64,000 nucleotides of DNA from an uncultured Gammaproteobacteria bacterium (GTDB lineage: Bacteria; Patescibacteriota; Patescibacteriia; UBA9570; XYC2-FULL-38-9): contig CAYFNF010000003.1 in NCBI GenBank assembly GCA_964344485.1, forward strand, positions 148,467 to 212,466, in the 5' to 3' direction. The notes below the pieces were generated by a model. The model searched no databases and had not been told where the DNA came from. It saw only the letters and a program-made list of their open reading frames with translations. Of the stretch, positions 3,469-26,800 are shown piece after piece. A program made the position numbers and the translations under genes. The stretch's first letter is position 1, and each line of letters begins with the position of its first letter.

Positions 3469-4338
3469 CTAGGAATAGAATTCTAAGAATATATCTTCAA
3501 GATTTGCGTGAGTAATTTCCACATCATCGAATTGATAGTTGCATAGTTTGTCTAGGAGCGGATTGATGTCGCCTTTTACTGTCATCTCTAAACCATTAGT
3601 GATCTGTTGAACAGATGAAATGCCGTCACCCTGAAAGTCGCTTTGTGGTAGCTCTTGTTTTGAAAACAAACGCACCGTGTACATGAGCTTCTCTTTAATG
3701 GACGAAACACTTTCCACCGCCACCATCTTGCCTTGCTTTATTATTCCAATGCGGTCGCAGACACGTTCGACCTCCCGTAAGTTATGCGACGACATAAAGA
3801 TGGTCGCGCCGCGTGCACGTGCTTCTTCCAATAAGTCGTATACTTCGTTTTGCAGTATTGGATCCAGGGCGTTTGTGGGTTCGTCAAATATCAAGACATC
3901 GGGTTCGTTCATCATGGCTAAAATAATGCCGAGCTTCTGCCTGTTACCAGACGAGAGTTTCTTTGCTTTCAGGGACGTATCGAAGTCTAAACGTTTCACT
4001 AGCTGATCTGCGACATTGGTTTTGCCGTTCAGTTTACTGAAGAAATCTATATGTGTTTTACCCGTCCATTTATCGTAGAGCCGTACTGTACCCGAGAGGT
4101 AACCGACCTGATGCTTTAATGCAACAGATTCTTTTTGAGCGTTTTTATCAAGGATAGATATCTCTCCTTTAGTTGGACGGATATAATCCATCATACAGCG
4201 AATGGTAGTGGTCTTCCCTGCTCCGTTCGGACCAAGGAATCCGAAGATCTCTCCTTTTTCTACTTGAAAAGAGATACCGTCGACAGCTTTAATTTTGCCG
4301 AAGTGCTTATGAAGATCTGATAGTGATATAACGCTCAT
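3469..4338 (-). CDS. ABC transporter ATP-binding protein
   Basis: Walker A GPNGAGKTT, ABC signature LSSGNRQKL, Walker B LIFDEPTNALD, H-loop. Confidence 0.85.
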   Translation of the reverse strand: MSVISLSDLHKHFGKIKAVDGISFQVEKGEIFGFLGPNGAGKTTTIRCMMDYIRPTKGEISILDKNAQKESVALKHQVGYLSGTVRLYDKWTGKTHIDFFSKLNGKTNVADQLVKRLDFDTSLKAKKLSSGNRQKLGIILAMMNEPDVLIFDEPTNALDPILQNEVYDLLEEARARGATIFMSSHNLREVERVCDRIGIIKQGKMVAVESVSSIKEKLMYTVRLFSKQELPQSDFQGDGISSVQQITNGLEMTVKGDINPLLDKLCNYQFDDVEITHANLEDIFLEFYS

Positions 4339-4389
4339 ACTGTGGGTACTATAACAAAAAAATGAATTAAAAAAAAGGGCGATCTGGAA

Positions 4390-4914
4390 CTACACGGTGT
4401 CGCGGAAGGTCTCTTGCGGCTGATCGATCCACGGGCACTCACCGCTGGCGTCTGTTGCCACGAACTGCGCGTGGACGTCCGGTTCGACCGTTGAGGTCTG
4501 CTTGTGCCACAGGACAGCGAGCGTGATCTCGTCGCGTGGGATACTCTCCCAGTCAGCAAGCCACTGCAGGGTGCGTTCCGTGGTCAGACCCGAGTCCGTC
4601 AGGTCATCGACCAGAATCACTCCAGCGCGCCGAAGCGGTTTGGCTGAAGTGAGGTCGCGGCTGAGCATGACCTCGCGCTGCTTCTGGTCCCCGTCCGGGT
4701 AGCTGGAGACCGAGAGCACGGCCAGCGGAAGACCGAGCGTACGAGCGATCAGCTCACCGGGCAGCATGCCGCCCTTGGCGATGCAGATCACCTGCTGGAA
4801 CTCGATTCCGCTCTCGCGAAGCTTCCGGATCAGGGTCCGGACCAGCTCGAAGTATGCGTCCCAGGTCACGTGTATTCGCGGGTGTTCGTCTGACATGATG
4901 GTTCCGTCCTCCAA
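4390..4914 (-). CDS. gpt: xanthine-guanine phosphoribosyltransferase-like (type I PRTase)
   Basis: Collinear similarity to E. coli Gpt: VTWD, I..GG(M/L)LPG.L.AR.LG, SSY....Q.E, PRPP-binding VILVDDLTDSGLT, C-terminal WIDQP. CDS is about 60% GC, far above flanks. Confidence 0.7.
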   Translation of the reverse strand: MEDGTIMSDEHPRIHVTWDAYFELVRTLIRKLRESGIEFQQVICIAKGGMLPGELIARTLGLPLAVLSVSSYPDGDQKQREVMLSRDLTSAKPLRRAGVILVDDLTDSGLTTERTLQWLADWESIPRDEITLAVLWHKQTSTVEPDVHAQFVATDASGECPWIDQPQETFRDTV

Positions 4915-4975
4915 TTAGTTTTGCCCGTTTCTATTGTACAACAAAAACAGTTTTTTTAGTATGTAGGGCTATAAA

Positions 4976-5893
4976 TTAATTTACCGTATAATCTGCGAAC
5001 TCGGGCTCTCGGATGAATTCAACATGAGCCAGGTTGCCGACTCCTGTTTCCTGGTCCTGACGAATCATGCGCTCTAGATGTGGAATAATGCTCTCTGGAT
5101 AAAAACGAATCGCGCTTAAACTATTTCTCAGCACATCGGATAAACGCACAGTTGCGTTTCCGGTCTCTTGAAAAGAAGGATCAATATGCTGGATTAATTG
5201 TTCGAGTAAACCGCGGAGGTGAGCCTCTGCTCGTCGCATGTTTTCCACTTCATCGTCTCGTAATTGTATTTTTCCACTATGTATCAATTCCATAATATGA
5301 CTGGAAAGAACACCGAATAGATGTGGATTCTCCATTTCAAGTTTATAGTAGCGATGAGATCCACCTTGTTCATCAGTAACCAAGAACTGTATTTCATCCA
5401 TAGGGTACTCTCTGACTCCTGCTTTGCTCATCAAGTTTGGCATTGCGAGAACACGATCCTGGTCCCCAATGCTTGCAGTGAGCTCTTTGACTAGTCGATC
5501 AATCTCAGGAGCAGAACGATCCAATACAGTTGTGCGGTCCCCAGAATACTCCGTGCCAGGTTGTTCTCGTTGAATGACAAGCTTTCGATCAAGCACCGCG
5601 TTGTTCACCGTACGCCCAACAAAGTAATCTACTTGTGTTCTATCCAACGTACGTAGTAAGCTCGTGCGGTTATAACGCTTTCCTAGTGTTGGTGTTCGTA
5701 GCTGATCATACGTACCTTGCGAGAACTCCCGTTGCGGTTCACGTGTGAGTAAATGCTGTAGGTATCGCTCGGAACGTTCGACTGTTTGTCCTTCTTTTAG
5801 TTTCTCTTCTCTCAACCGCGCAACAAAACCTGGATCATCGCGTAAGCGCGGATCTTGCCATCCTCCCCTTTGATATAACGGCCTACCTGGCAT
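4976..5893 (-). CDS. hypothetical protein (305 aa, no recognised domain)
   Basis: Long intact ORF with native-like composition; no motif identified by eye. Confidence 0.4.
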   Translation of the reverse strand: MPGRPLYQRGGWQDPRLRDDPGFVARLREEKLKEGQTVERSERYLQHLLTREPQREFSQGTYDQLRTPTLGKRYNRTSLLRTLDRTQVDYFVGRTVNNAVLDRKLVIQREQPGTEYSGDRTTVLDRSAPEIDRLVKELTASIGDQDRVLAMPNLMSKAGVREYPMDEIQFLVTDEQGGSHRYYKLEMENPHLFGVLSSHIMELIHSGKIQLRDDEVENMRRAEAHLRGLLEQLIQHIDPSFQETGNATVRLSDVLRNSLSAIRFYPESIIPHLERMIRQDQETGVGNLAHVEFIREPEFADYTVN

Positions 5894-5951
5894 TGTTGTA
5901 TTATACTACTATCTGTCTCTATTCTGGGTCTGAATTACTGCTTTGTCAATA

Positions 5952-5980
5952 TTGACAGCTTTTACTACGTGATATATAGT
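5952..5980 (+). promoter_or_regulatory. sigma-70-like promoter (TTGACA, 17-bp spacer, TATAGT)
   Basis: Perfect -35 hexamer and 5/6 -10 hexamer with 17-bp spacing in an AT-rich intergenic region; followed about 100 nt later by an intrinsic terminator. Confidence 0.45.
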
Positions 5981-6068
5981 ACTCGCAACATGAAGAACCA
6001 CGTATACAACGCTACAGTAACAACTACCCACCTTATGTGAGGCGTTGTTTAGTTTGTATCAATACCCT

Positions 6069-6093
6069 AGCGCCTCACTCGAGGCGCTTTTTG
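6069..6093 (+). terminator. rho-independent terminator (8-bp GC-rich stem AGCGCCTC/GAGGCGCT + TTTTT)
   Basis: Perfect inverted repeat with 4-nt loop followed by T-run; no upstream + strand CDS, so terminates a short transcript from the 5952 promoter. Confidence 0.5.
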
Positions 6094-6263
6094 ATTATTT
6101 ATTCATTATGAACTTTCTCTTTTTTCAATCAACTACTACACCGTTATTGCTCTTCTTCCTCACTGGAACAGTGCCGTAATTAGTGTTGTGTAGTTGAAAG
6201 GAAGAAGAGCGCGGTCCGAATGGGCCGTGTTTTTGTTCTTTTGAATGTAAAGGAGGAATTCCA

Positions 6264-7232
6264 ATGTATGGAATTGAAGCAGAGTATCTGATGACGAGTC
6301 ATCGCATCCAAGATGTGCTCAAGCTGCAGCTCCCGGGCGTGACCGCCGAGTTCTTCGACTTCATGGTCGAGATCATCACGGATCCGCACGCGCGTGCACG
6401 TCAGGCTGTGGACCAGCTGGAGCGTCGGGTGCAAAGAATGCGTCGACGAGGTGTGGAGCTCGAGCAGTGGGCGTCCTTCCCGGACCGAGTTCAGCCGATT
6501 ACGTTCACGGACGTGGTCGCAGACAGCCCGTACTACCGCTGGGTCTATGACCAAGCGTGTAGATTCACGGGTCATGAGCCGCTGGACCTGCACCATGTGG
6601 GCATGCACCTGAACTACTCGTGCTCGGACATGAGCGAAAACGAGCTGGTGCACGCGGTGAACTGGTGTCGGTGCATGAACTTCTTGTTCATCCTGTTCTC
6701 AGCAAACTCACCGTTCCAGAATGGGCAGTCCTGCGGGCTACTGTCACGACGGTCATATCAGTACCCCAACCGATACGACGTCCCGCTGTGGGAAAGCGCC
6801 GTCGCGTTCAAGCGCTGGATCCAGGAGCAAGAAGCGTTGTATCGCATCTACCCTGGAAAAGGTCGCTGCTGGATGACGGTCTGCCCGCGCTTAGAGGATA
6901 ATGATTTCCGCAAACCGATTCAACGGATCGAACTGCGATCGTTAGACTCAGGCACCAATGTCCGCTTCGGTGTTGTGCACGGGTGCTGCAAGCTACTCGA
7001 GCGCATTGTCTTGCGCGCACGCCAAGGAGCGCCCCTGCCAGCGCAACTGAACGAACTGCAGCACAACGATCGAGAGGTCTCGCGGCTCGGAGCAAGCGCA
7101 TGGGTACGCTTGAATGGGCAAGAGTTCTGCGTGCAGCAGCTCGCTGAACAATGGGCAGCGGGTATCGACACGCTGGAGCAGATATTAACGCACGGATGCG
7201 CAGCACAATCGTCCTTGCGCTACTGCGTTTAA
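6264..7232 (+). CDS. GCS2-family carboxylate-amine ligase (glutamate-cysteine ligase family 2 / YbdK-like amidoligase), tentative
   Basis: N-terminal GIEAEY (GxExE[FY] hallmark of GCS2/YbdK), about 320 aa, internal His-rich HHVGMH; strong AAGGAGG RBS 8 nt upstream; CDS about 60% GC. Confidence 0.45.
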   Translation: MYGIEAEYLMTSHRIQDVLKLQLPGVTAEFFDFMVEIITDPHARARQAVDQLERRVQRMRRRGVELEQWASFPDRVQPITFTDVVADSPYYRWVYDQACRFTGHEPLDLHHVGMHLNYSCSDMSENELVHAVNWCRCMNFLFILFSANSPFQNGQSCGLLSRRSYQYPNRYDVPLWESAVAFKRWIQEQEALYRIYPGKGRCWMTVCPRLEDNDFRKPIQRIELRSLDSGTNVRFGVVHGCCKLLERIVLRARQGAPLPAQLNELQHNDREVSRLGASAWVRLNGQEFCVQQLAEQWAAGIDTLEQILTHGCAAQSSLRYCV

Positions 7233-7327
7233 CTCTCTGCAACACAAAGAGAACATGGTCTAGTATGAGCCACACATCATACTTTTTTTCTTTCTTCTAA
7301 ACTGCGCCTACGAATAATAAAACGGTA

Positions 7328-8551
7328 TTATTTCATTCTGAACTTCTTCCATGGGCTCCACTTGCTCCACCCAGCATCATTGCCGCATCGCACTCTGAAA
7401 CGATAGTACTGTTTACTCTTCACGAATTTCTTTGACTTTTTCAGAAATTTTGAATTAGTAGTAAGTCCTTTAAACTTTTTCACAGATGTAAATTTCCCGT
7501 TTGCTTTCTTTTTTTGTAACACTGCTTGATAGGTATCGGCATTTGCTTTCGCTTTCCACCACAACTTTGCTGACTTCTTCTTTTTCTTTTTCACTTTCAG
7601 ATGCTTCTTTTTCTTGATCTTGCTTGGTGCAGTGAGTTCATTAATTGTAAAATTTGCTAATGCATAATCTTCTGCTGAATCTGCTGCGCCATCAGTGGTC
7701 ATAGCAACACTATGCGCTCCGGCAATCCCAGCAACAGCATCACTGATCAATAAATCATACGCATCTTCATTACTTTTAGCTACGTCGGTAAGGACCTCAC
7801 AACTGAGTACAGAATTCTGACTGAGGTCATACGTTAAAATCTCATCTAAAGTGCCTTTAGAATTGTCTATAGTTGCATCAGTTAGATCCCACCCTGATTC
7901 ACTAGGCGATTTATTCTCTGCAACAAACACAATGCTTAGCTCTTCTCCGCTAGATAATCCACGGCTAAGCGTAAAATAGAGTTCTAGATCCAGTGTAGAG
8001 CCGGCGGTTGCCTCAGTTGGAGAAACTGATAACGAACCTACGGCATTTCCAAGGCCTTGGATGGACACAGTATCATCAGTCATGGTTGCATTCGCACTTT
8101 CACTCAGAGGCTGCGTTGTAACTCCAAAGCGAATTGACGTTGCCTCATCAGGATTCACCGCATCTGCTAGGGTGACGGTATACTTGTCTGCGGGGAGTTT
8201 TGCGGATAACGTTAATACAGTGCCCCTGCCATCAAGCACTGGTGAAAAAATAAAATTGGAGTTGCCAATAGATCCCTCTGATGAAGGAACCACATTTTGT
8301 AAATTTACATACTCCGGACCGTCGTCTTCTGTAGAGAAAATTGAGATAGTTGAACCGCTGGGTAGATCTACGTTAGTAGTGACGGCGATAGTATACGTCT
8401 CGGTTTCCCCAGCAATAGAAGCTGTTGGTGCAGCGGATACTTCTGATATATTTGCATCTTCCGTTCCTTGCATGCTAAATGCTTGCGCAGATGATGGCGC
8501 GTACACCAGGACTGCTGCGATAGCGAGTGTAAGCAAGATTGTTTTTTTCAT
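7328..8551 (-). CDS. secreted protein with Sec signal peptide, Ser/Thr-rich beta-rich body and Lys-rich C-terminal tail with FN3-like end
   Basis: MKKTILLTLAIAAVLVYAPSSAQA signal; C-terminal KKKKHLKVKKKKKK...YYRFRVRCGNDAGWSKWSP. Confidence 0.5.
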   Translation of the reverse strand: MKKTILLTLAIAAVLVYAPSSAQAFSMQGTEDANISEVSAAPTASIAGETETYTIAVTTNVDLPSGSTISIFSTEDDGPEYVNLQNVVPSSEGSIGNSNFIFSPVLDGRGTVLTLSAKLPADKYTVTLADAVNPDEATSIRFGVTTQPLSESANATMTDDTVSIQGLGNAVGSLSVSPTEATAGSTLDLELYFTLSRGLSSGEELSIVFVAENKSPSESGWDLTDATIDNSKGTLDEILTYDLSQNSVLSCEVLTDVAKSNEDAYDLLISDAVAGIAGAHSVAMTTDGAADSAEDYALANFTINELTAPSKIKKKKHLKVKKKKKKSAKLWWKAKANADTYQAVLQKKKANGKFTSVKKFKGLTTNSKFLKKSKKFVKSKQYYRFRVRCGNDAGWSKWSPWKKFRMK

Positions 8552-8612
8552 ATGTATTCTTTATTGATTAAGTGTATAGTATAACAGAAAGCAATGCTTA
8601 AAAAAAGCTGCG

Positions 8613-9020
8613 CTATTTCATATTATACGATGCCTGGAGCCAGGATAATAATTCTTTATTAATGTCTTTCTTGCTTTTCAAATCAAGACAGATTTTATAG
8701 CTCTTTGCGGACAAAGGAACTACAGCTTTTATTCTTTGCTTGGCGATCTTCTGACTATAAATAAACCGGATCTCTAATCGGTCTTTTTTTGGTAGCGCTG
8801 CGAGAAAATCGAATGTGCCGAATAGGTGTACGCAACAAGGAATGGAAATAATCTTGCACTTTCCAATTTTACTGTTTATCTCCTTTACCAAATAATTAAA
8901 AAGCTCTTGGGCCACTGTTTTGTTCTTGAAATGCTCTTTGACATCTAGTCTTTGGCAGGTGTGTGGTTGTTTCGCTCTACGAAAAATACGTTCGCATTTA
9001 GGGCAGGTCCACATAAACAA
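8613..9020 (-). CDS. hypothetical protein with N-terminal zinc-ribbon-like motif (CPKC...HTC)
   Basis: 135 aa, WTCPKCERIF..QPHTC; basic. Confidence 0.35.
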   Translation of the reverse strand: MFMWTCPKCERIFRRAKQPHTCQRLDVKEHFKNKTVAQELFNYLVKEINSKIGKCKIISIPCCVHLFGTFDFLAALPKKDRLEIRFIYSQKIAKQRIKAVVPLSAKSYKICLDLKSKKDINKELLSWLQASYNMK

Positions 9021-14670: not shown

Positions 14671-17600
14671 CTATTCACTAGCCTGTTCCGCGCTTGGAAG
14701 CACAAATTCCATAATCGCGGCTCTCCTATATGTGTTGTAATCACTCAGCTTTCCACCGAATGAATCACTATATTGATATTCGTTCTGTGTACGTGCAATA
14801 TACATATCTCGCTCCTCTCCTTTGTTCTCTTCAGTATCTCCGCGAACAGTTGCACCGCGACGCGCCGCTTCTTCATAGAATGCTTGTAACGCCTGTTCGC
14901 ACCATACATGTGGAGTGATGGACACACTCGCTCCACAACTCTCTGCTTTATTAAATGCGAGCTGAGCAAATGCTTGATAGACACGCGGATGATCGATGGT
15001 TTTGTATGCAGGTTCAAGGAATAGTGTCGGATGCTCACCTTCTGTATTAGTTTCTCGAATCTGAGTAATACGCTCTACACATCGCAGTAGTATCTCGCCT
15101 TCTTCACCGCGTACATTAATTCCTTTTTTATTTGCATCCACAACATACGACAATAAGCATTCGTTGTATGCACCGCGCTTCCAGCTCTGGCACGTTTCAG
15201 ATGGTTCGGTTCCTAGTCTAATCATGCGTAATTCATCATCAAACTCCTCAGCTGTGACCGTTCCAACTTCGCTGACCGTGAATGGACGGTATAGCTGGTT
15301 CACGTCCGACGCGACTTGATGAAGACTCGCTGCTTCGCACTGCTGTTGCAAGCGCATGGCCATTCGCAGGACTGCACCACGTTCCAGAGGAGTGGCAGTA
15401 AGCTGCTCTCTGACTGCAGCGAGTTGGCGGGCGATCGCTGTAACTGCATCATCATCCGTGCGATCTGCGGTGAACTCTGCAAAATGTGCATCTGCATCAT
15501 CGAGCAGCCCGAGTGCAGCGGAACGTTGCTGCTCTAATAAGTCCTGCTCTTCATCTGAACGCTCTACTTGCACAGCGTCTTCGGTCTCAATCCAATGTTC
15601 ACGCTGATCACCTAGGAAACCAATCTGATCTTCTGCGCACTCATGCGTATATTTCCAAGAGGCAAAATCTCCCACTACATGATGTTCAATCACGCTACGC
15701 AACGCCTCGACTGGATCATCAACTTTCTTTGCTTCAAATGAGAGCAATAGGGTAGTACTCATATCTAGGAAGCCTGAACGATCATGCGCATCAATATTAT
15801 CTGCAATCGCATGACCGATCTCTGCGCTCACTCCGAGACGATCAGTAAGTACCGTAGCAACTCGGTCTCTGTAGTGTTCAGTTGGGCCAACCAATCCAGT
15901 TAATTCTTGCTCTTCTTTTATCAGTGCTCGTCGTCTGGTGCGAATTGCTTTACGTGTAGGTGGATCCAATCTCGGTAGAATCAATTCGATATTAGCAAGC
16001 GCTGCGCGAATTGCCTCTAAACGTTCAGTTGGATCATAGTCATACTCCATGCATCCAAACCGTTCTAGCATTTCAAACGAACGAAACATCTCTCGAACAC
16101 GTCGTGGATCATCACGTGTATCACGGTAACGCTGCATCATATCCTGAAGAACAGCAGCTCCTTGTTCACCTTGTGCTCGCATACGCAGGAATCCTTGCAA
16201 CAGAATACCCCTACTTTGATGAGATCTCCGTACTTTCTTGTGCGCCAAGAGCCGGCGAAAATTATCCATTGCATCCCCTTCTTCCTGTCCAATTGCTTCT
16301 TGCCCTATTTGTTCCATAAACTCAGGGTTAGCAGCGAGCGCAGCAGTTAAACCATGTATAGTCCACCACGGCGTCATGTCTCTGGCTTCTAGTACTCTAC
16401 GCTCTACTTCTTCGCGCTGTCGAAGTAGTATTCCGACAGAAGTACCATCCGGTAACAGCCCGGCCACAAATGCACTGCGCTCAGGCATGTCCATAAAGCT
16501 AAACATCTCTGGTACTTCAGTGTCAGAGAACAGATCTGCGAGTTGAGCGCGCGCTACAAAGAACTCGCCTTTTGACAGCAAACGAGTCCGTCCATATACA
16601 TCACTTGTTTCTTGATAGAGTACAGAATCTTCATCTACCATCTGTGCGATTAATGCACGTTCAATGCCAGGCATCGCTTCTAAATGCGCGCGTCCTTCCT
16701 CTGACTGAGCCAATCGTCTAATAATAGAAAATATCAGCACCGTGGTATGACCGGATCCAGCATAGAAGATATGCTCTAATAGCGGCTCGATAGCTTTAGG
16801 ATTTCCTAGTTTTCCTAGGTCCATCGCTGCATCTGTACCGTGGCCAGATTCGCGTCCACCTGGACGAATCATATCCCGCATCAGAGTTTCAATGAGAAAC
16901 TCTTCGAACTCTTCGAACTCTTCATCAGTCGCAATAGCTGCGACTTCAGGGTCGTCACGTAATAGACGTATGCGCTGTGTTCCACGTAGAATTTTTATCA
17001 GCTCATCATTGTTCCCGACATGTTGAATTGCGTCATCACGCAACGATCTACGTTGATGTTTAATAGCTGCGGTAGGGCGATCGTACGGTACAACTTCACG
17101 GTTAAAGTCACGATGCGCTCGCCAGTCAGCAAACAAACGCAAGAGATTCCTGGTTTGTTGGTTTGGATTCTCCCAGTTCGATCGGTCGATATCGCTGGGT
17201 GCCCACTCTACAGCCCTTCTCAGCTCTCTGTCTCTATCGTGCAGCATCATAAATCGATCACCAGGGCGGCGCGGAAATTCATCAGTAAGTGCACGGCCAG
17301 CTCTATCCTCCCATCCATTAAAGGTCTGCACTCGCTCACCACCGATGCGCAGATCATCTGGGTGCCTGCTATTACCATCATTCGTCAGTAGCGCGACGAC
17401 CGCTTGTTCCCACTGTCTGATCTGCGGTTCAAGGCCAGGATGCCTCTCTAATAGCTCATCCACAATTGGTTGAATATGCATTTCTCGTAACCGAGCATTA
17501 ATACGATCATGCAGCTCTGTACTCCCCGCAAGGGCATAGAGCTGCTCCTGTTGCTCGACGATCTCGGCTGTACGCTGCTGTGCTTCAGCATACAACCGAT

Positions 17601-18210
17601 CATCAATCACTTCTCTTGCACTCTCTCGTGCTGAACCCAAACTACGACGTCCTTGTCGCGATGAAACACCCTGGTCTGTTTGCAGATCTGCAACTGCTTC
17701 ACGAATGAGCTCCACAATGCGTTCATGTGCTTGCAATTGCGCTACTGCACGTTTGTGTGCTCTACTACATGTTCTGACCAACCAATGTGCTCCTGATAAC
17801 TGACGGGTACGAGCCTGCATCGCTCCGCTTATAACTGCAAGATTGCTTTCAAACGTACGTTCAAACGGCAATTCCACCACAGTAACGTCATACATGCTTA
17901 AGGTGTCAAGTGCTATCTCCTCCCATTCTGTTAAGAATTGAGCGTACTCCTGCTCTATTGCCTGCAATTCCTGTTCGAGCGCTTCTAGGCTTGCTTCAAG
18001 GTGCGCGTTCATTTCATCGTAACTCTCGCCTTGGAATACTTCACGTGCAGCAAGTAGTTCTTCTACACGCTGAGCCACTCCTTCTATGCGTTGCTGCACC
18101 CCTTGAAATCGTTCAAGCATAGCTCTGCCACGTTCAACAAACTGCTCATGATGTTCATGGTACTGAGCCTCTATTGGTGTTTGGTGATTTTCGCGAATAG
18201 GTGCATTCAT
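14671..18210 (-). CDS. giant hypothetical protein (1179 aa): N-terminal coiled-coil, central HEAT/PBS-lyase-like repeat, acidic DEEFEEFEEF patch
   Basis: Uninterrupted ORF 4 nt downstream of the 1849-aa gene; LGKLGNPKAIEPLLE HEAT-like repeat; no catalytic motif recognised. Confidence 0.65.
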   Translation of the reverse strand: MNAPIRENHQTPIEAQYHEHHEQFVERGRAMLERFQGVQQRIEGVAQRVEELLAAREVFQGESYDEMNAHLEASLEALEQELQAIEQEYAQFLTEWEEIALDTLSMYDVTVVELPFERTFESNLAVISGAMQARTRQLSGAHWLVRTCSRAHKRAVAQLQAHERIVELIREAVADLQTDQGVSSRQGRRSLGSARESAREVIDDRLYAEAQQRTAEIVEQQEQLYALAGSTELHDRINARLREMHIQPIVDELLERHPGLEPQIRQWEQAVVALLTNDGNSRHPDDLRIGGERVQTFNGWEDRAGRALTDEFPRRPGDRFMMLHDRDRELRRAVEWAPSDIDRSNWENPNQQTRNLLRLFADWRAHRDFNREVVPYDRPTAAIKHQRRSLRDDAIQHVGNNDELIKILRGTQRIRLLRDDPEVAAIATDEEFEEFEEFLIETLMRDMIRPGGRESGHGTDAAMDLGKLGNPKAIEPLLEHIFYAGSGHTTVLIFSIIRRLAQSEEGRAHLEAMPGIERALIAQMVDEDSVLYQETSDVYGRTRLLSKGEFFVARAQLADLFSDTEVPEMFSFMDMPERSAFVAGLLPDGTSVGILLRQREEVERRVLEARDMTPWWTIHGLTAALAANPEFMEQIGQEAIGQEEGDAMDNFRRLLAHKKVRRSHQSRGILLQGFLRMRAQGEQGAAVLQDMMQRYRDTRDDPRRVREMFRSFEMLERFGCMEYDYDPTERLEAIRAALANIELILPRLDPPTRKAIRTRRRALIKEEQELTGLVGPTEHYRDRVATVLTDRLGVSAEIGHAIADNIDAHDRSGFLDMSTTLLLSFEAKKVDDPVEALRSVIEHHVVGDFASWKYTHECAEDQIGFLGDQREHWIETEDAVQVERSDEEQDLLEQQRSAALGLLDDADAHFAEFTADRTDDDAVTAIARQLAAVREQLTATPLERGAVLRMAMRLQQQCEAASLHQVASDVNQLYRPFTVSEVGTVTAEEFDDELRMIRLGTEPSETCQSWKRGAYNECLLSYVVDANKKGINVRGEEGEILLRCVERITQIRETNTEGEHPTLFLEPAYKTIDHPRVYQAFAQLAFNKAESCGASVSITPHVWCEQALQAFYEEAARRGATVRGDTEENKGEERDMYIARTQNEYQYSDSFGGKLSDYNTYRRAAIMEFVLPSAEQASE

Positions 18211-18214
18211 ATAT

Positions 18215-21200
18215 TTATGTTGTTATCCTACCATATCCCATTACTGTTGGAAGTAGTCTCATTGGGCTAATATCTCGATATCGTGTCTTGCCTGGTTCCC
18301 CGGTTGGCTCTTCCATGCGAGCAAGATACGCCCCGGTTGCTAGAGACTTCATAAATTTCTCGAACCCTTCATGGATTGCGCGTCCTCCTTCAGAGATAAT
18401 CATCAATACCTCTTTATACTTCTCACCGGTTTCCAAGGTGCCTGACACCACCGCAGCAACACGTTCTAACTGTTCTGCTTCAACATCAGGCACAAACGTG
18501 CGAATTCCCTCTTGCACTAACGCCGGGTTCTGGAATTGTGCGAGCATGCCTAAGAATATCTTCTTAATGCTATCAATCTCTGTTTGCGCGATCTCGCCCG
18601 CGCTTCCAAGGTCCAGCTCTCCGAGTTCACCATCTGGCGTGACCACCCAATTTCCTGGGTGCGGATCTGCTTGAAATCGTCCTTTCACGAATATTTGATA
18701 CATGAGCGCGTCAAACGCTTGTACGTGGATATCTTCTAATCGACCGACGAGACCTTCATACGCAGTCATTTCATCTGGCTGCAAGTCGTATTTCGCTTGA
18801 AAATCTGCCAAGGTGCGTCGCCCCATTGCTACGTCAGTTAATTCTCGTAACGACAACCCTCGAATCTCCTCTTCTAATATATGTTCTTCACTGTGATCTA
18901 GGATCTCTGCAATGCGCACCGGGAACAGACGCGCCATAGCTGCTTGTGGGTAGTCTTCCATAGCCGCAGCCACTGCTTCATGATTCCGTACTTCTTCTTG
19001 GAAGTTTGCCTCATCACGTAACCAACGACCGATACGATCTTCCAAACCATCAGGTACAGTAAAATCTGCTTCGCGAAGATTTCCCATAATCCTATTCAGT
19101 ACCCGAAGGTCTTCCCCGAGATGCTTTGCAATAGATGGTCTTCGCACTTTTGCAATCACACGCTGTCCGTCTTCTCTAGTCGCACGATAGACTTGTTTAA
19201 TTGACGCAGCAGAGATTCGTCTGTCCATAGAAACCAGCCGATGTGGATGGCCTTCTTCAAACTGTCCCACTGCTCCCATCATGTGCATGCTGGCAGTACG
19301 GTGGAACGTTTTTGCGTTCTGTTGGAGCTTGCGCAATTCCTCGGCGATGTCATCAGGGAGCAACGGGGTACCGTCCGCGTTCTTTTCTTCAGCTAAGACT
19401 TGGCCTGCTTTAATACCGACTGGCCCGACCGCTTCTAGTAATCCACGCAGGCGTTCTCCAATTGTAGAGTCTCCTTGTCCGCGTAGTACTTCCATCATCT
19501 CGATGTAGACTTTTGCACGTCGGAATGGACCGTACTCTTGTAATGCAGTTGTAAAGATCACTCGTACTGCTTCTCTTCCTCTCTCTCCCAGTGCTTCTGC
19601 TGCTTCAGGTGGAAAGACTCGCTCAAACGATCGATCAATAAATTCTTGGAATATCGCTTCGTCTTCTTCTTCGCGCGGGTCCATGACACCGTTCTCTCCA
19701 AAGAGCAAACGGATATAGGTCTCTTCGCGTTCCTGTGGAGTGGCTGCAAAGAGTAGGTCTGGCATGTCTTCCACTGAGCACTCATTATGTCCACCGAATG
19801 CACGTAATATGCGCGGAGGTTGATCAGTCTCTCCGATAGTCCATAATACAAATTCTTTTCTGTCTTCACGGTTTAAATATGCTAAAACCGAATTGATTTT
19901 CTCTACTGTAGATTGTTGTGATAGTTCTGCGTCCTCGGTGGTGCGTCGTTGTACATCAAAAAGACGGCGTGTGATTTCCCGTGCTTGTGGAGGAGTGCGG
20001 ACTACGCCAGTATCTCCAAGTTGCAATAGCGCTTCACCCCGTACATGTGATGCGTGTGGGTAGAGCTCACTGATACGATCCAATTCGCTCGCAAAGGTCT
20101 CTTCCCCTGTTGCAAGGTGTTCTCGGAATAATGAATTCGCTCTTCGTGACCAAAGCTGCTGATGCGCTTGATCTGCAAACAGTGGAATGGTTCGTTGATA
20201 AAACGTATATAGTTCATGTGCAACATCTGGCTGAATCTCGTTCCCTTCTGGTGCAACAACTTCGTGTCCGTTCGTAGTAAGGCCACGCTCTTGTAGTAAT
20301 GCTGTTTCTATGGCGCCTAATAATTCATCACGATAATTCGTCACCTCTGGAATGAGTTCTTGAACGCGGTCCACTCTTCCAACTGCGGGGATCGAGGGAT
20401 CCGCTGGTAATTGAGTGTAGTCTATATAGAACTCTAGTGCATTGTACCGCTCTGAGTATTTGCGGTCCCCTCGGAATATCGTAGTAAAGCTCGGCGCAGA
20501 AGGATCATACGCTGCAGCATCAGATTCGATATTACGGGGGATCAACTCACTAGTGCTTTTTGAATAATGCGACTCTCGATCTATCGGGTGATAACGTTGA
20601 ACGAATCCACTCTCCACCACCTCATCTGGAAGCGCTCCTGGATGATACACTCGAAAGATGTCGCGAAGCTGCGTATCACGTGTGGAAACTGGAACAAACT
20701 GCGTTATAGCTGCAACACTCTCATCTTCTGATCGCTCATCTGGTTCCACATGCCATCTGCCCCATTGCCATATAATGCCGTGCGCTTCTAGTGCTCGTTG
20801 CATAATTGAATATGTAACCCCGCGATCAATACGATCCACGCCCCATTCTCCACTTCTATCTTCGGCTTGTTTGCATTTCCCTTCTATCTCTACGCAATAC
20901 CGTGCGAGCTCTTCTAGCTCTGGCTGAGTGAGTGCATCAAATGCTGCTTGTAAATCTGCAGCGTGTGGTGAAACGCTGGTATCAAAATTAATCGCGCCGT
21001 CTCGCAGCACTCTCTTCAGCGGCGCAACGATGGAATCGCCTGGATTAAGCACCATATACAACCGAACATACTCAATAGACAGCGAAATGCTATAGATAGC
21101 AGCTGCTTTATCGCGCTCTGTATAATCCTCAACTTCACGTCTGTCGATACAGTCGCTATCCCACTTCGGTACCACATCAAGTGCTGCCTCTAAAAAGTCT

Positions 21201-23764
21201 AACTGCTCTTGCTCTGACATACGTGCTCGTCGCTCTGCATCATTCCATGCTCCTCGAATGTGCGTCCATATTACTGAGGGATCTTCTCCTTCTAGAAAGC
21301 GGAGCATCTCTGCAGGTGGAACAGAATCAGAACATGATGATATAATCGCATCCAGAAACTCTTGTCGAGCTCGTTTAGATTCATACGTCACTGCAGGGTA
21401 TAGATGAAGTATCGGTGCGGCTCGCTCAACTAAGTCATCGTATGATGCTATCCCGACTTCATGCAACAATCCAACTAACTCAGCTTGATGCAGAGAAGCA
21501 ACTTCAGCATGGGAAACCTGTAAAATACTATGCATCTGTTCTAGGCGTTCTTGAGGGGTGAGTGTTTGAAACCCTTCTCTCTCAGCTCGTGCTTGGATCG
21601 CACGAGTTACCACGTGCTCCCATAATACATAGATAGCATCAGCACCGCGGAGAGGTGCGTCAAATCCTGTTTCTTCTAAAAATAATTCGTTCGCTGAGGG
21701 TCTCGCTTCTATAGCTGGTTGTGGAAAGTGGCGTAACCACTGTTCACACTCCTGTTGTGAAAGTGTTGCAACAAAACCTTCAAGTTCCGCGGGTTGATAT
21801 CCTCTTGCAGATAACTTCATGGCGAGTTCAGCAACCAACTGTCCAAGTGTAGCGGCGTGCTCTGCTGAAAGTAATGCGCGACCCTCTGCGCTAGTAGTAT
21901 ACCGCTGTGCAAACCGCTGAGCGAGTTCCGGAAGTATACGATCAACAGTAGGAGAAGGAATGGTCCGTGGTTCTAAGGCTGGCATGGATTCTCCTGTGGC
22001 AATTGCTTGTCCTAACGCGGCAAGCGCTTCATTGTCATCACTATCAAACGCGTTTCGCGCTTCCATCATGAGAACTTGCCTGATGACTGCTACTCTTCCC
22101 TCTGGAGTTGAGACATCATCTGCTCTACGTAACTCTTCAGGTAGATAATGCTCTCTTGTGAGGTCGACTGTTAAGACACCTTGAGTGAGTTTGTCCAGCT
22201 GCATCTTCCAATTGCGTGCTTGGTCATGAAAAAATGGGGTACTGCTTTCACTGCAGAGAGTCATAAGCTCTTCAGGCTCTGCTGCACGCACTTGCTCTTT
22301 TACTGCATCATTATATTCATATCCGTCTTCTTTCGGCCCGTCGATATCTGCGTTAGAAATAAGCGTGTCTAGCGTGTCAGCGGACACACCATCAACTACT
22401 GCTTCTAGCTGTGCACGAAGATGCTGTACTTTACGTTGTAGTTCAATACGTGCTGCAAGCTTTGCTGCTTTTTCATGATCGTCCGGGTCTTCATCAGCAG
22501 CTGCTTGCGCTTGTGGAATTTGCTCACTGAGAAACCGTAGTGTTTCATCATATGCTTTGATTACTTCCGCGCGTTGCCGCTGCAGTCGCGTGTGCAGCGA
22601 TCGTTCAAATTTCTCTTCGTCATACGGCCCTTCCTCTACTTGTGCCCCAAAATCAAATTCTCTATCCATATATCGAGAGAGTTTATCCGGTGCTACCGAA
22701 GCCCTTGCCAAATACTCTGCTCTTCCTTCAGAGTAATGGTAACCGTAATATGCGGCATGTAGTGCATTGAGCACTTCTGCAAAATTGTGAAGCACAATCC
22801 TCTGTGCATAGTGTTTTCGCATTCGCTCCTGCTCTGCTGCGTGATGAAATAACGCGTGACGATCTAATACAAAAGCAGCAACACCAACTTCAACCGCATC
22901 ATGAAAACTCTCAGCTTGAGCGATCATGTCTTCAATATGGTCTAAACCCTCAGCACGGTACAATCGCGTGCCAGGTCGGCCGGGTGGTTCATCGATAAAT
23001 GCACGTTGCACTTCTGCTGGAACAACGGTCGGCTCTTTTTCAATATTCGGTAGCCAGGTGTCTGGGCTCTCCACTAACTCCACGAGCTCTCTATATCTAT
23101 CAGCGGATCGAGGGTGGGATGTTCCAATAGGCAGATCATTCGATAGGCTTAATAGAAACTGGATAGCTGCTAATCCCTCACGTGGATTATATCCAGCTTG
23201 TGCAAGTGCGATCAGTCCACCACGGTCAGCGTCGTATTCCGCATTCAAGCGGCGCTGCTTCTCATCGTGATCTGGATAGTCTTCATGAACGACGCCTTCT
23301 TCAGTATGCTGATCAATATGTGTACTTTCATGCGCTGCCACCATAGCGATCATGTCTTCGGTCATTGGTCGACCGTGTCGTTCGCACCAGCGCCCAAGTT
23401 CTCGCAGCAATCCCATGTATGTGTAGACGTGCGCGTGCCCGCTTACGACAAACGCATTAATTCCGGGTGAATCAATTGCAACCACATCAGTGGCGGGAAT
23501 CGATAACTGCCGCTCAATTCTTGCTTGAATGCGTGCCAGCATCTCTTTTCGCGGATCATCATCATCTAGAATTCCAAAACGCTGCTCCAATTGATAGAGC
23601 ATTCGTCGTAAATACGCTTCTGTTTGGTCTTGCCTACTTTGTGCTTCTGCAAGCCCAATTATTTCTACTCTTGGCGGTTCATCATGATCAACTTCAGGAA
23701 CTTCAGCAATTGAACGTGCTGGTCGTGGTAGTCTGGATTCTGATGCTGCAGCGTGTGAGTTCAT
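18215..23764 (-). CDS. giant multidomain protein (1849 aa): N-terminal M48-family zinc metalloprotease domain + C-terminal ABC1/UbiB-type atypical kinase-like domain
   Basis: M48 signatures INAFVVSGHAHVY, HESTH(x)..., EYDADRGGLIALAQAGYNP. ABC1 signatures VGPVGIKAGQVLAEEKNADGTPLLPDDIAEELRKLQQNAKTF, ISAASIKQVYRATREDGQRVIAKVRRPSI, FQADPHPGNWVV. Confidence 0.75.
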   Translation of the reverse strand: MNSHAAASESRLPRPARSIAEVPEVDHDEPPRVEIIGLAEAQSRQDQTEAYLRRMLYQLEQRFGILDDDDPRKEMLARIQARIERQLSIPATDVVAIDSPGINAFVVSGHAHVYTYMGLLRELGRWCERHGRPMTEDMIAMVAAHESTHIDQHTEEGVVHEDYPDHDEKQRRLNAEYDADRGGLIALAQAGYNPREGLAAIQFLLSLSNDLPIGTSHPRSADRYRELVELVESPDTWLPNIEKEPTVVPAEVQRAFIDEPPGRPGTRLYRAEGLDHIEDMIAQAESFHDAVEVGVAAFVLDRHALFHHAAEQERMRKHYAQRIVLHNFAEVLNALHAAYYGYHYSEGRAEYLARASVAPDKLSRYMDREFDFGAQVEEGPYDEEKFERSLHTRLQRQRAEVIKAYDETLRFLSEQIPQAQAAADEDPDDHEKAAKLAARIELQRKVQHLRAQLEAVVDGVSADTLDTLISNADIDGPKEDGYEYNDAVKEQVRAAEPEELMTLCSESSTPFFHDQARNWKMQLDKLTQGVLTVDLTREHYLPEELRRADDVSTPEGRVAVIRQVLMMEARNAFDSDDNEALAALGQAIATGESMPALEPRTIPSPTVDRILPELAQRFAQRYTTSAEGRALLSAEHAATLGQLVAELAMKLSARGYQPAELEGFVATLSQQECEQWLRHFPQPAIEARPSANELFLEETGFDAPLRGADAIYVLWEHVVTRAIQARAEREGFQTLTPQERLEQMHSILQVSHAEVASLHQAELVGLLHEVGIASYDDLVERAAPILHLYPAVTYESKRARQEFLDAIISSCSDSVPPAEMLRFLEGEDPSVIWTHIRGAWNDAERRARMSEQEQLDFLEAALDVVPKWDSDCIDRREVEDYTERDKAAAIYSISLSIEYVRLYMVLNPGDSIVAPLKRVLRDGAINFDTSVSPHAADLQAAFDALTQPELEELARYCVEIEGKCKQAEDRSGEWGVDRIDRGVTYSIMQRALEAHGIIWQWGRWHVEPDERSEDESVAAITQFVPVSTRDTQLRDIFRVYHPGALPDEVVESGFVQRYHPIDRESHYSKSTSELIPRNIESDAAAYDPSAPSFTTIFRGDRKYSERYNALEFYIDYTQLPADPSIPAVGRVDRVQELIPEVTNYRDELLGAIETALLQERGLTTNGHEVVAPEGNEIQPDVAHELYTFYQRTIPLFADQAHQQLWSRRANSLFREHLATGEETFASELDRISELYPHASHVRGEALLQLGDTGVVRTPPQAREITRRLFDVQRRTTEDAELSQQSTVEKINSVLAYLNREDRKEFVLWTIGETDQPPRILRAFGGHNECSVEDMPDLLFAATPQEREETYIRLLFGENGVMDPREEEDEAIFQEFIDRSFERVFPPEAAEALGERGREAVRVIFTTALQEYGPFRRAKVYIEMMEVLRGQGDSTIGERLRGLLEAVGPVGIKAGQVLAEEKNADGTPLLPDDIAEELRKLQQNAKTFHRTASMHMMGAVGQFEEGHPHRLVSMDRRISAASIKQVYRATREDGQRVIAKVRRPSIAKHLGEDLRVLNRIMGNLREADFTVPDGLEDRIGRWLRDEANFQEEVRNHEAVAAAMEDYPQAAMARLFPVRIAEILDHSEEHILEEEIRGLSLRELTDVAMGRRTLADFQAKYDLQPDEMTAYEGLVGRLEDIHVQAFDALMYQIFVKGRFQADPHPGNWVVTPDGELGELDLGSAGEIAQTEIDSIKKIFLGMLAQFQNPALVQEGIRTFVPDVEAEQLERVAAVVSGTLETGEKYKEVLMIISEGGRAIHEGFEKFMKSLATGAYLARMEEPTGEPGKTRYRDISPMRLLPTVMGYGRITT

Positions 23765-23832
23765 GTATGATTATAACAAATAAAAATATCACAAAATAGT
23801 GAAAAAGTCAATGGAATCCTCCAATACAATCA

Positions 23833-26800
23833 TTATGCAGCAGCAGCTGGCGGCTCGGGTTGCTGACGATGTCGATGATGGCTGAACCATGCTATACCAA
23901 CTAAGAATATAATGACGATTCCAATGTTAATCATCACCAGCATGGTGGTGCTTGAGAGGCGATTCTTCTCTTCAATCACAAACCGCGTGATCTCGACCTG
24001 GTCAGATTTCACACCGTTTACTTCGGTTTGAGCAAAAACGACGTGATCTCCTTCACCGAGCAACTCTGCTGGAACCGTAATACTCCATTTACCGTTGGTG
24101 TCTACTTGCGCGACTTTTACTAATGGGTCTGAATAGATCGTCAGAATTGCCACAGCAGACATCTCTCTATACTGCTCAGCAATCTCTCCGGAGATAGTAA
24201 TCTCGTTCTTCTGTTCTTCGACTGTGCCGCCGAATAATCGTCTTGTTGCATCAATAATATCCCACTGCTGAACTTGCGTATAGGTGACGGTCCCATCATC
24301 TGATACCGTCGGTTCGATTGTAGTGCTATCTTGCTGGAACTCTATATCCGCAGTGTCTTGCAGCTGTCCAGTCTCGGTGGTCTGCAATTCTTCTCTTTGC
24401 TGCTTGGTCAGCGGCACGACTTCATCTGTATATGTATACGGATTCTCTGGCGGTTGTTTGACTCCATCCTCAGCATATTGTGTTTTTATTAGCTCTTCAA
24501 ATTTCTTTACGTTCACTACAACCACATCTGGAAGGCCGGTGTCGGTTGAACCCCCTTGGATTGGGTTGGTGCCGTACTTCACTTCATCACTATCTGATAC
24601 GCCGTCGTCATCAGAATCCGTGTCTGTTGGGTCAGAACCCAAATCCACTTCGTCGGAATCGCTTACCCCATCTTGATCTGAGTCCGCGTCTTCTGGATCA
24701 GTACCTAGCTCTTTCTCTTGTTCATCAGTCAGGCCGTCTCCGTCACTATCGGTCTCAGCTGGCTCGGTGTCAGTTCCTTGGTCAGGGCCTGGGTCTGTGC
24801 CCTGGCTCGGATCGCCGGTGTCAGTGTCTGGAGTATCAGTAGAAGGAGTTTCTTGAGGGGTGGCAGGGGCTACGGGTACGCTCACAGGAGCACTTACTGG
24901 TGCTGACACAGTAAAGGTGATTTCATTCGAAGTAGTCTCTGGATAGCCAGCTTGTTCAGAAGTGACAGCGTATGCAGTATGCGTGCCTGTAGATAGTGCA
25001 GATGGACGACATGCAACAGAGCTGGTCTCTCCACCACCAGTTGCAGTAGTATCGCAAATTCTCTGCCCATCAACATAGATTTGGGTATAAGCACCAGTAC
25101 GTGCTAATAGAGTAATCCATGGTCGGTTATATGATGTCTGCGCGTCCACCACAACTTGTTGCATCACTGCTGCAGGGTATGGGGTTGCGCGTACAATAGT
25201 CTGTGGAGTAAATACCTTTATCACAGTATCTTTTTTCGTATTCACGACCTTTACCTTGATCGCATTCGCTCCAATTGATAGTGCGGTGGTTGGTGTGCCC
25301 TGATATGAAATCACTGGACCAGTGTCGCTGGTAATAGCAGCAGTTCCGCTCAACGTACCGTTTACGAACAGTTGTACTGCAACATCATCCACTGAGATAT
25401 TTCCGATATAGACGTTACCGAAAAAGACCGGGTTCTTACTAAACGTCACATTCGAAGTCAATTTACTTCGCTCCTCTTTTGGATAGATATGAAATCGATC
25501 TGACACTACAGAAGATCCGACCGTATACCGGACACTGGATGTCTTTCCCACATTCCCTTTCTTATCTTCGATATTTGCCTCAGACGTATGTTTGTCGTAA
25601 TTCTTCTGGATCTGCGAATCTACCTCCCATTCTCCTTGCGCGTCTGTGGTGTCAGAACCGTCTAACTCACCTTCGGTATATACAGAAACTTCAGACTCTG
25701 TTTCAGCAGTTCCACTAAATGAAACGTATTGGTTGTAAACAATGTCATTTTGTTCTGGCTCTTCGATTACTGCTGCAGGCGGGCCGATTGAGAAACTCGC
25801 GGTCTTCTCCCACTCTGTGGAGCTGGATCTACTAGCGGTCTTCACTTTTGTGTACAGCTCCCAGAGTCCGCGCTTCAGTGTAAACTCTGTTTCTGCTGTG
25901 CCGTTACTGCCGACCTGTTCTTCATTGATCTTCTCTGCGCCGTTCTTTACGCGCACAAATTTAAACACCACCCACTGGCCAGTGGTTCCGGTTGCTGATA
26001 GCTCTACCTTCAGACGACCGGTATCCTCCTGTGCACTCAGTCGATGTACGCTCGAAGGATCACTTCGCAACTGCTCTCCATTTACTGTTAGTGCGGTGGG
26101 TAACAGTGATGACGCTGATCCTTCCTGTGTAGTGAATGAGTCTACTGAAGAGTTCGATGTATTACTACTCGCATCCGCGCTCACTACCTGATAGTAATAT
26201 GTAGTGCTGCTTAAAAGCCCTGATACAGTCACTGAATGGCTCTTTGTTAATCCACTAGTTGTTTGTGACTGCGGAATTTGCTCAGTCTTTCCATATCGTA
26301 CTTGTGATGTTGCTTTTTCATTCGTGGTCCAAGTAATAACCGCGGATGTAGAACGGCGAGTGACTTGAATATCTGAAATAGTGGGCGCCGAAAGGTCTCC
26401 AGTATCTGTGGTTGGGATTACTGACCCTGAAGTAAACTGAGATGTATTGTTTGATGAGTCTGTTAGCGTTGCAGTGACTTTATAGTTAGAAGCATATGAT
26501 TCTAGAGTGCTCTTGGGAACATCAACGCTCCATGTTAAACTCGTGACCGCTGCTTCTGTTATATAGACCTCGCCTTCATTATTCCGGTCTACAAAGACCT
26601 CCACTGTTCCGTCACTAGATGCAGTACCCGAGACAGTGTATGTATCTCCTTGCAAAGAAATTGCACTGATCACTGGGGTAGCAAGCCCCTCATTTGCTCC
26701 ATCAATTAGATTAATTCCACTTGAGGAGTTGTTATAGATAGAATTCTGTGTTACTAAATTGTATTTAGTTCCACTTTGAGAGATGTTCAATCCATCTGCA

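Follow-up and report, generated by a model that had tools for sequence, protein, structure and literature searches.

Two tandem leader ORFs with threonine-codon runs are predicted to attenuate transcription of a YbdK-like ligase gene

In a 64,000-nucleotide (nt) stretch of contig CAYFNF010000003.1 from an uncultured bacterium (hereafter, the window), we analyzed a short unit at 5952–6092 of the plus strand, in which a promoter, a threonine (Thr)-rich mini-open reading frame (mini-ORF), and an intrinsic terminator lie ahead of a gene for a YbdK/GCS2-like carboxylate-amine ligase starting at 6264. We consider it likely that two tandem, ribosome-mediated transcription attenuators, of which this unit is the first, sense threonyl-transfer RNA (Thr-tRNA) and gate the ligase gene. 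The attenuator is probably leaderless. An earlier interpretation made from the letters alone (the sequence-only reading) had described a stand-alone unit and offered two candidates, a small RNA (sRNA) or a leader-peptide attenuator. The second candidate was strongly supported by the existence of an antiterminator and by the recurrence of the whole design, with covariation, in related loci. Judged from its sequence context, the unit is part of the ligase leader and not a stand-alone gene, because a second Thr unit follows at 6108–6234, the region of the ORF1 stop codon is complementary to a terminator arm, and no other plus-strand promoter-like site was found ahead of the ligase gene; these three features had been overlooked in the sequence-only reading.

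Promoter, leader ORF, and terminator of the first unit

The promoter consisted of a −35 box TTGACA (5952–5957) and a −10 box TATAGT (5975–5980) separated by a 17-nt spacer, exactly as had been read before. It matched the consensus at 11 of 12 positions and was the top-scoring promoter-like site in the consensus scan of 4000–9000; across the window, TTGACA-N17-TATAAT with no more than one mismatch was found at three sites, compared with 0.51 expected. The start site was expected at approximately 5987–5988. The sequence-only reading had placed an ATG at the predicted start of transcription, and an ORF does begin there, although its ATG is at 5990 and not at 5991, 9 nt beyond the −10 box and approximately 2–3 nt past the expected start site. 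The 5′ untranslated region of the leader transcript is thus expected to be only 2–3 nt long, which would make the messenger RNA leaderless in type. No other plus-strand promoter-like site was found by the consensus scan from 5980 to 6873, a range that extends past the ligase start at 6264; the ligase gene must therefore be transcribed from the promoter at 5952–5980 through both terminators. The intergenic region (5894–6263) separates two divergent genes, a 305-residue ORF without a family match on the minus strand (4976–5893) and the 322-residue GCS2-like gene on the plus strand. A perfect palindrome, TTGTCAATATTGACA, at 5944–5958 corresponds to the back-to-back −35 boxes of two divergent promoters; it is probably not an operator, because its left half is not conserved in L015, one of the related loci described below.

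The first leader ORF (ORF1, 5990–6040, plus strand) has 16 codons, as had been stated, and encodes MKNHVYNATVTTTHLM, followed by the stop codon TGA at 6038–6040; no Shine-Dalgarno (SD) sequence precedes it. Four of its 16 codons specify Thr, three of them consecutively: ACA at 6014–6016 is followed by one Val codon and then by ACA-ACU-ACC at 6020–6028, and the stretch 6014–6028 is taken as the regulatory codons. Intrinsic terminator 1 (AGCGCCTC-ACTC-GAGGCGCT; in RNA, AGCGCCUC-ACUC-GAGGCGCU) is located at 6069–6088 of the same strand. Its hairpin has eight base pairs, six of which are G-C, with an energy of −14.5 kcal/mol, and runs into a U-tract of five T residues (6088–6092), in agreement with the 8-base pair (bp) hairpin and U5 recognized previously. 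The promoter and terminator 1 enclose no protein gene, again as had been noted.

A predicted antiterminator overlapping the stop codon of ORF1

The segment GUGAGGCGUUG at 6037–6047, which overlaps the stop codon of ORF1, was complementary to UAGCGCCUCAC at 6068–6078. The latter segment comprises the entire 5′ arm of terminator 1 (6069–6076) and two loop bases (6077–6078), which would double as the 3′ arm of an antiterminator. This duplex had an energy of −18.3 kcal/mol and a z-score of −5.2, and none of 300 shuffled sequences gave one as good; it is a pairing of the kind that the sequence-only reading had envisaged between the ORF region and the terminator stem. As it uses the terminator 5′ arm, the antiterminator is mutually exclusive with terminator 1.

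The effect of ribosome position was modeled with the ribosome as a 28-nt block extending from −15 to +12 nt relative to the A-site codon. In a transcript truncated ahead of the terminator 3′ arm, the 5′ arm was paired with a probability (P) of 1.00 when the ribosome was on the Thr codons and with P = 0.33 when it was on the stop codon. Over the 16 units found in the window and the related loci, the corresponding medians were 0.83 and 0.19. This truncated-transcript model fits a simple two-structure attenuator.

Conservation of the leader design in related loci

Fourteen related loci were retrieved (L001–L006 and L008–L015), one of which, L008, was contributed by a metagenome scan. L011 and L013 duplicate the upstream regions of L010 and L012, respectively, and L005 and L008 end at a contig edge, with L008 cut inside the upstream peptidase gene, so that they are too short upstream to judge. 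Thr-run mini-ORFs, one or two in each, were present in all 11 distinct loci with enough upstream DNA, giving 16 units in total. The units were always directly upstream of, and co-oriented with, a ligase or peptidase gene: they precede the ligase gene in the window, L001, L003, L004, L006, L009, L012/L013, and L014, and in L002, L010, and L015 they precede a gene for a PepT-like M20 peptidase that itself stands before the ligase gene. Tandem units were found in five distinct loci (the window, L001, L002, L010, and L012).

The encoded leader peptides were MRNRRFTTTTLNFLFSR and MNLFILTTTTTTTNSPPV in L001, MRNVRFTTTTTDTIFIG and MNFYQLTTTTTTASPP in L002, MKYIVSTTTTTGTTLCG and MYIRIVTITTTTDPPT in L010, and MQYTRTSITTTTTSTPIPRS and MFSIHHSLLQTTTTTTTIGRGALLLGE in L012, and the single peptides were MTYCGRYTTTTLLTRLPS in L003, MNNSPKKQLYTTTTTP in L004, MKSVFKTTTTKLP in L006, MNNSVQQLQTTTTTQPEC in L009, MNCHIRCTTTTTLTRLPS in L014, and MKNVCTTTTTLIPA in L015. 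A run of three to seven Thr codons was the sole feature common to all 16 leader ORFs. Short ATG-started ORFs with TTT occurred elsewhere in the analyzed DNA at approximately 9 per 260 kilobases of strand length, and from this background rate about 0.1 Thr-run ORFs would be expected in the leaders, compared with the 16 observed. Two Thr-run mini-ORFs on the minus strand of the window, at 41154–41107 (MTTTTAAIIPKIIIQ) and 41044–40961 (beginning MTSALCTTTMEPAV), were judged to be background, because no terminator is nearby and, by eye, they are apparently antisense to plus-strand coding sequence.

The terminator started 20–35 nt past the stop codon in all 16 units, and in 14 of them a significant antiterminator (p ≤ 0.027 each) began between −9 and +4 nt from the stop codon. 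The two exceptions were the second units of the window and of L012, in which longer ORFs span the corresponding segment. When 12 units were aligned, 84.9% of the cells in the antiterminator helix were paired, compared with 71.9% for shuffled sequences, none of which (0/500) reached the observed value, and with 25–48% when the helix was slid along the alignment. Covariation was apparent in the helix, with changes on both sides in five of nine pairs. In eight of the 11 first units, a perfect TTGACA was separated by a 17-nt spacer from a TAnnnT box whose end lay 7–13 nt before the ATG, and the mini-ORF would therefore start at the 5′ end of the transcript or a few nt from it.

The closest counterpart of the window's first unit was that of L015, a homologue at the DNA level, with the ligases of the two loci only 50% identical. 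The two units share AATATTGACA, the 17-nt spacer, TATAGT, ATGAAGAAC, and GTGAGxCG, together with the stretches TGTTGTTT, CGCCTCAC..CGAGGCG, and TTTTTGATT; in L015, TATAGT stands 7 nt before the ATG, and terminator 1 is conserved as ACGCCUCAC..CGAGGCGU. The sequence-only reading had singled out conservation of the hairpin as a point on which its proposal could fall, and the hairpin is conserved in relatives.

The second unit and the Shine-Dalgarno sequence of the ligase gene

Beyond the U-tract of terminator 1, a second ATG opens ORF2 (6108–6179, plus strand), which encodes MNFLFFQSTTTPLLLFFLTGTVP, ends with TAA, and carries the Thr codons ACU-ACU-ACA at 6132–6140. Together with intrinsic terminator 2 (6205–6234, plus strand), it makes up unit 2 at 6108–6234. 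Terminator 2 has 13 pairs, with a core at 6210–6229 of −12.8 kcal/mol and a U-rich tail. Second units homologous to ORF2 were those encoding MNLFILTTTTTTTNSPPV in L001 and MNFYQLTTTTTTASPP in L002. Within ORF2, the segment GCUCUUCUUCCU (6149–6160, plus strand) is the perfect complement of AGGAAGAAGAGC at 6199–6210.

The next gene downstream is the GCS2-like ligase gene with its own ribosome-binding site, as had been described. Its SD sequence, AAAGGAGG at 6249–6256 of the plus strand, was the sole strong one among the 27 long ORFs of the window. Codons 3–6 of ORF2 contain a putative anti-SD segment, UUCUCUUUU (6115–6123, plus strand). When the full leader was folded, the ligase SD (6249–6257) was paired with this segment at P = 0.86–0.97, and a ribosome covering 6108–6140 lowered the pairing of the SD to P ≤ 0.14. 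From this model, masking of the SD under the control of ORF2 may add control of translation to the attenuation of transcription; such added control was clear in the window only. Many of the other long ORFs had a TATAAT-like box that ended 5–9 nt before the ATG, and examples of genes without an SD are those at 4976–5893, 18215–23764, and 32448–33866 on the minus strand and at 57029–59071 on the plus strand. Translation in this genome evidently starts in a leaderless or SD-independent manner, and the ligase gene would need an SD because it lies behind a 275-nt leader.

In L006 (176–310, including a second terminator-like site) and L004 (676–707), additional hairpins without a Thr ORF lie in the stretch from the single Thr unit to the ligase SD. 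They may represent second units that have degenerated or a separate type of control element.

Proposed mechanism and its weak points

We propose that transcription begins 2–3 nt before the AUG of ORF1, which would be translated as a leaderless messenger RNA, as seems to be usual in this genome. With an ample supply of Thr-tRNA, the ribosome would reach the UGA at 6038–6040, and its footprint would cover GUGAGGCGUUG at 6037–6047. With this segment masked, the terminator 5′ arm at 6069–6076 would be free, the 8-bp terminator would form, and an RNA of approximately 105 nt would end at the U-tract. When Thr-tRNA is scarce, the ribosome would stall at ACA or at ACA-ACU-ACC (6014–6028) and leave 6037–6047 free to pair with 6068–6078 as soon as the latter is transcribed; the terminator would then come too late, and the polymerase would continue. 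Unit 2, with ORF2 at 6108–6179 and terminator 2, would repeat the check, although in the window its role may be mainly translational, because a ribosome that occupies the first half of ORF2 would unmask the ligase SD. The net outcome would be that the ligase is made only under Thr limitation. The mechanism is classical, and what is new is this family of attenuators and its target gene.

Several observations weigh against this interpretation. The Thr run of ORF1 (T-V-T-T-T) is the weakest of the family. When the full-length transcript was folded at equilibrium, terminator 1 was retained (P = 0.98) at every ribosome position, and the switch in this unit must therefore be kinetic and co-transcriptional; among the other units, stalling at the first Thr codon shifted the balance at equilibrium in 11–12. 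The classical 1:2 "anti-antiterminator" pairing was no better than that of shuffled sequences in the first unit (z = −0.3) and was significant in just six of the 16 units, even though the minimum-energy fold holds a 1:2-type pairing of 6004–6031 with 6037–6059. In unit 2, the candidate antiterminator formed by 6149–6160 and 6199–6210 competes with the lower stem of terminator 2 only; the upper 7–8 bp persist, and this 12-bp GCUCUUCUUCCU/AGGAAGAAGAGC helix was rejected as a full antiterminator. None of the mini-ORFs has an SD, which suits leaderless first ORFs but does not explain how initiation would occur at internal second ORFs. Finally, the ligase that would be regulated is not known to be connected with Thr metabolism.

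Alternative explanations

Three other explanations were weighed against Thr-dependent attenuation. The unit might be an independent sRNA gene, whose RNA of about 105 nt acts in trans and in which the ORF and its Thr codons are incidental or specify a small protein. The promoter is strong, the terminator is good, and the RNA of the unit (approximately 109 nt) folded better than shuffled sequences (z = −3.1). A dual role is also conceivable, as terminated attenuator RNAs have gained trans functions elsewhere, for example, rnTrpL in Sinorhizobium and SreA/B in Listeria. However, no plus-strand promoter-like site that could serve the ligase gene alone was found between 5980 and 6264, and the gene would be transcribed through the unit; the unit shares its leader with a second one in tandem; and the homologous units of the relatives sit without exception in the same orientation directly before the ligase or peptidase genes that they would regulate. 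What has been conserved, moreover, is the in-frame Thr run, the position of the stop codon, and the antiterminator, with no candidate seed region among the conserved elements, and no Rfam sRNA family was matched. An independent sRNA gene is therefore improbable, and neither the stand-alone unit nor the sRNA of the sequence-only reading was upheld.

The Rfam scan that the earlier reading had suggested gave the unit no assignment. Searches of the window and of 12 loci yielded tRNAs only at the gathering score, and Thr_leader (RF00506) was without a match in any of them. T-box (RF00230) gave no match in the window at the gathering score, nor in 5850–6300 at E ≤ 10. A permissive scan of 5850–6300 returned only a hit of Phe_leader to unit 2, whose 23.7 bits fall short of the cut-off of 55 and which we regard as noise.

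It is very unlikely that the mini-ORFs encode Thr-rich substrates or partners of the ligase, similar to ribosomally synthesized and post-translationally modified peptides (RiPPs) or to Pup, with the hairpins setting the ratio of peptide to enzyme. Small ORFs do lie directly upstream of a gene for an amide-forming ligase that shares its fold with PafA/Dop, and hairpins are common behind the precursor genes of RiPP clusters. The peptides, however, are 13–27 residues long and share only the Thr run, with neither a leader, a core, nor a C-terminal motif conserved among them and no Glu or Lys retained as a handle, and the peptide sequences of duplicated units differ. In L002, L010, and L015, the ORFs precede the peptidase gene and not the ligase gene, and the stop codon lies consistently within the antiterminator, which a hairpin that sets stoichiometry would not need.

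We give equally little credence to a trans-acting factor, either an RNA-binding protein or tRNA-Thr, that reads the ACN-repeat tract and sets the terminator/antiterminator switch: the tract is the most conserved element, no mini-ORF has an SD, and attenuation proteins that recognize triplet repeats, such as TRAP and HutP, are known, but in each of the 16 units the ACN frame held an ATG-started ORF over the Thr run, as against 0 and 2 units for the remaining two frames, the position of the stop codon tracks the antiterminator arm, the ATG lies 7–13 nt past the −10 box in eight loci, which is the geometry of leaderless starts, neither a T-box nor any other Rfam family was matched, and no candidate binding protein is conserved beside the loci.

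Comparison with known attenuators

The predicted Thr attenuators resemble the leader of the enterobacterial thr operon (thrL; Thr_leader, RF00506) and the trp, his, phe, and leu attenuators in their layout: codons for the sensed amino acid are clustered in a short leader ORF, the structural gene is preceded by an intrinsic terminator, and a mutually exclusive antiterminator makes use of the terminator 5′ arm. The position of the ribosome chooses the structure in the known systems and is predicted to do so here. The Thr attenuators differ from these systems in several respects. At the gathering score, neither RF00506 nor another Rfam leader matched them in sequence or structure; the ORF is expected at the 5′ end of the transcript and has no SD; the stop codon is itself overlapped by one arm of the antiterminator; and little or nothing is seen of the 1:2 hairpin. 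They also differ in the arrangement of two units in tandem and in the target, which is a YbdK-like ligase gene, with or without a PepT-like peptidase gene, and not thrABC.

Leaderless leader peptides have been reported for Corynebacterium and mycobacteria. They have also been predicted for attenuation in Deinococcus deserti, in which, as predicted for the window, the leader AUG is at the start site or a few nt from it and the genome is dominated by leaderless messenger RNAs (PMC4007540). The present case belongs to another lineage, whose GC content is 45% and whose known members all come from uncultured sources, and differs in the sensed amino acid, the target, and the tandem duplication; no homology is claimed.

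Serial units are also present in B. subtilis thrZ, which has tandem T-box leaders. T-boxes, however, bind tRNA directly and have no ORF. The Salmonella mgtCBR leader likewise contains tandem leader-ORF attenuators (PMC3641672), that is, two serial regulatory units in one leader with a multiplicative response. The two ORFs of mgtCBR sense different signals, whereas both ORFs in the window carry Thr runs. From its folding, unit 2 would in addition resemble translation attenuation of the erm/cat type, in which a ribosome on the leader opens an anti-SD:SD pairing and exposes the downstream ribosome-binding site; the stalling signal here would be a shortage of Thr-tRNA, not an antibiotic.

The putative target ligase and its threonine context

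The regulated gene (6264–7232, plus strand) encodes a protein of 322 residues assigned to the YbdK/GCS2-like carboxylate-amine ligases by its Pfam GCS2 match and its fold. It matched Pfam GCS2 (PF04107) weakly (E = 1.5e-10; 41 bits against a cut-off of 21) and scored far under every NCBIfam equivalog cut-off, and the match therefore indicates membership of the superfamily only. The AlphaFold (AF2) model had a predicted local distance difference test (pLDDT) score of 95, and Foldseek aligned it with YbdK (1r8g/1tt4) at a TM-score of 0.73–0.75 and 13–15% identity, followed by GshA, Dop/PafA, and glutamine synthetase.

The family is rare and has been seen only in metagenomes and uncultured genomes. 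Among 5.8 billion proteins, a word-indexed search found seven relatives and a profile found 15. An exhaustive HMMER search of 1.84 billion representatives (clusters at 50% identity) gave 10 ligase clusters at E ≤ 1e-30, below which the scores dropped across a gap to generic YbdK-like proteins.

The gene neighborhood offers some connection with Thr: thrS lies directly downstream of the ligase gene in L001 and L014, and a gene for a PepT-like M20 peptidase lies ahead of it in L002, L008, L010/L011, and L015. None of the neighbors in the window recurred in the other loci as a candidate for a conserved divergent or adjacent regulator. In L001, the thrS leader (6994–7332; compare L014, 1494–1598) has a TTGACA promoter of its own, a leader of approximately 230 nt, and a terminator, with neither a Thr mini-ORF nor an Rfam T-box match. 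The deposited start of the L010 M20 peptidase gene, at 3730, lies within terminator 1, with the second Thr unit still to follow (region 3730–3850); this start is probably wrong, because homology to other peptidases begins at approximately 3868.

The composition of the regulated proteins was also distinctive. Thr made up 3.1% of the window ligase, compared with 7.1% in the other ORFs (p = 0.0016), and 1.4–4.1% of the PepT-like peptidases. The leaders use ACA, ACU, and ACC, with ACG accounting for only 8 of 91 Thr codons, whereas the ligase genes prefer ACG (54 of 146 Thr codons; p = 7e-7 compared with the leaders), a difference that is confounded by the raised GC content at third codon positions (GC3) of the ligase gene. 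In the window ligase, the Thr codons were eight ACG and two ACC, with no ACA or ACU. The GC content of the ligase gene was 6 to 16 points above that of the rest of the locus in all 12 loci (12/12), with a GC3 of 0.48–0.74. Recent horizontal transfer is an unlikely source of this high GC content, because the offset is common to the 12 loci; one possible reason is a choice of codons that suits translation under starvation. Biosynthetic enzymes are known for "cognate bias," and the isoacceptor-sensitivity theory deals with codon choice. On this background, the low Thr content and the preference for ACG would fit proteins that are made during Thr shortage; these patterns do not reveal the reaction of the ligase.

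Elsewhere in the window, three consecutive giant ORFs of 1179, 1849, and 1789 residues were observed on the minus strand at 14671–29202. They had few or no family matches, an ABC1 kinase-like domain together with M48 in one and beta-helix/NosD repeats in another.

Implications

The switch mechanism is of the textbook type and is not surprising in itself. Its value lies in providing, through limitation of threonyl-tRNA, a physiological handle on a very rare ligase family. We suggest only tentatively, as a possibility rather than an expectation, that the attenuators mark a hitherto unrecognized Thr-limitation regulon of an uncultured lineage with leaderless messenger RNAs, comprising the rare, ATP-dependent YbdK-like ligase, often the PepT-like peptidase, and in two cases thrS, and that the ligase carries out a new reaction in the acquisition, salvage, or sparing of Thr and not glutamate-cysteine ligation. 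If this were true, the raised GC3, the avoidance of the leader Thr codons, and the low Thr content would be adaptations to translation during Thr starvation. The 16 units, with their covariation, provide a further example, backed by comparison, of leaderless and tandem attenuation beyond the model phyla, in a genome that seems to be nearly without SD use, and once aligned they could seed a covariance model with which to map the Thr regulon in these organisms.

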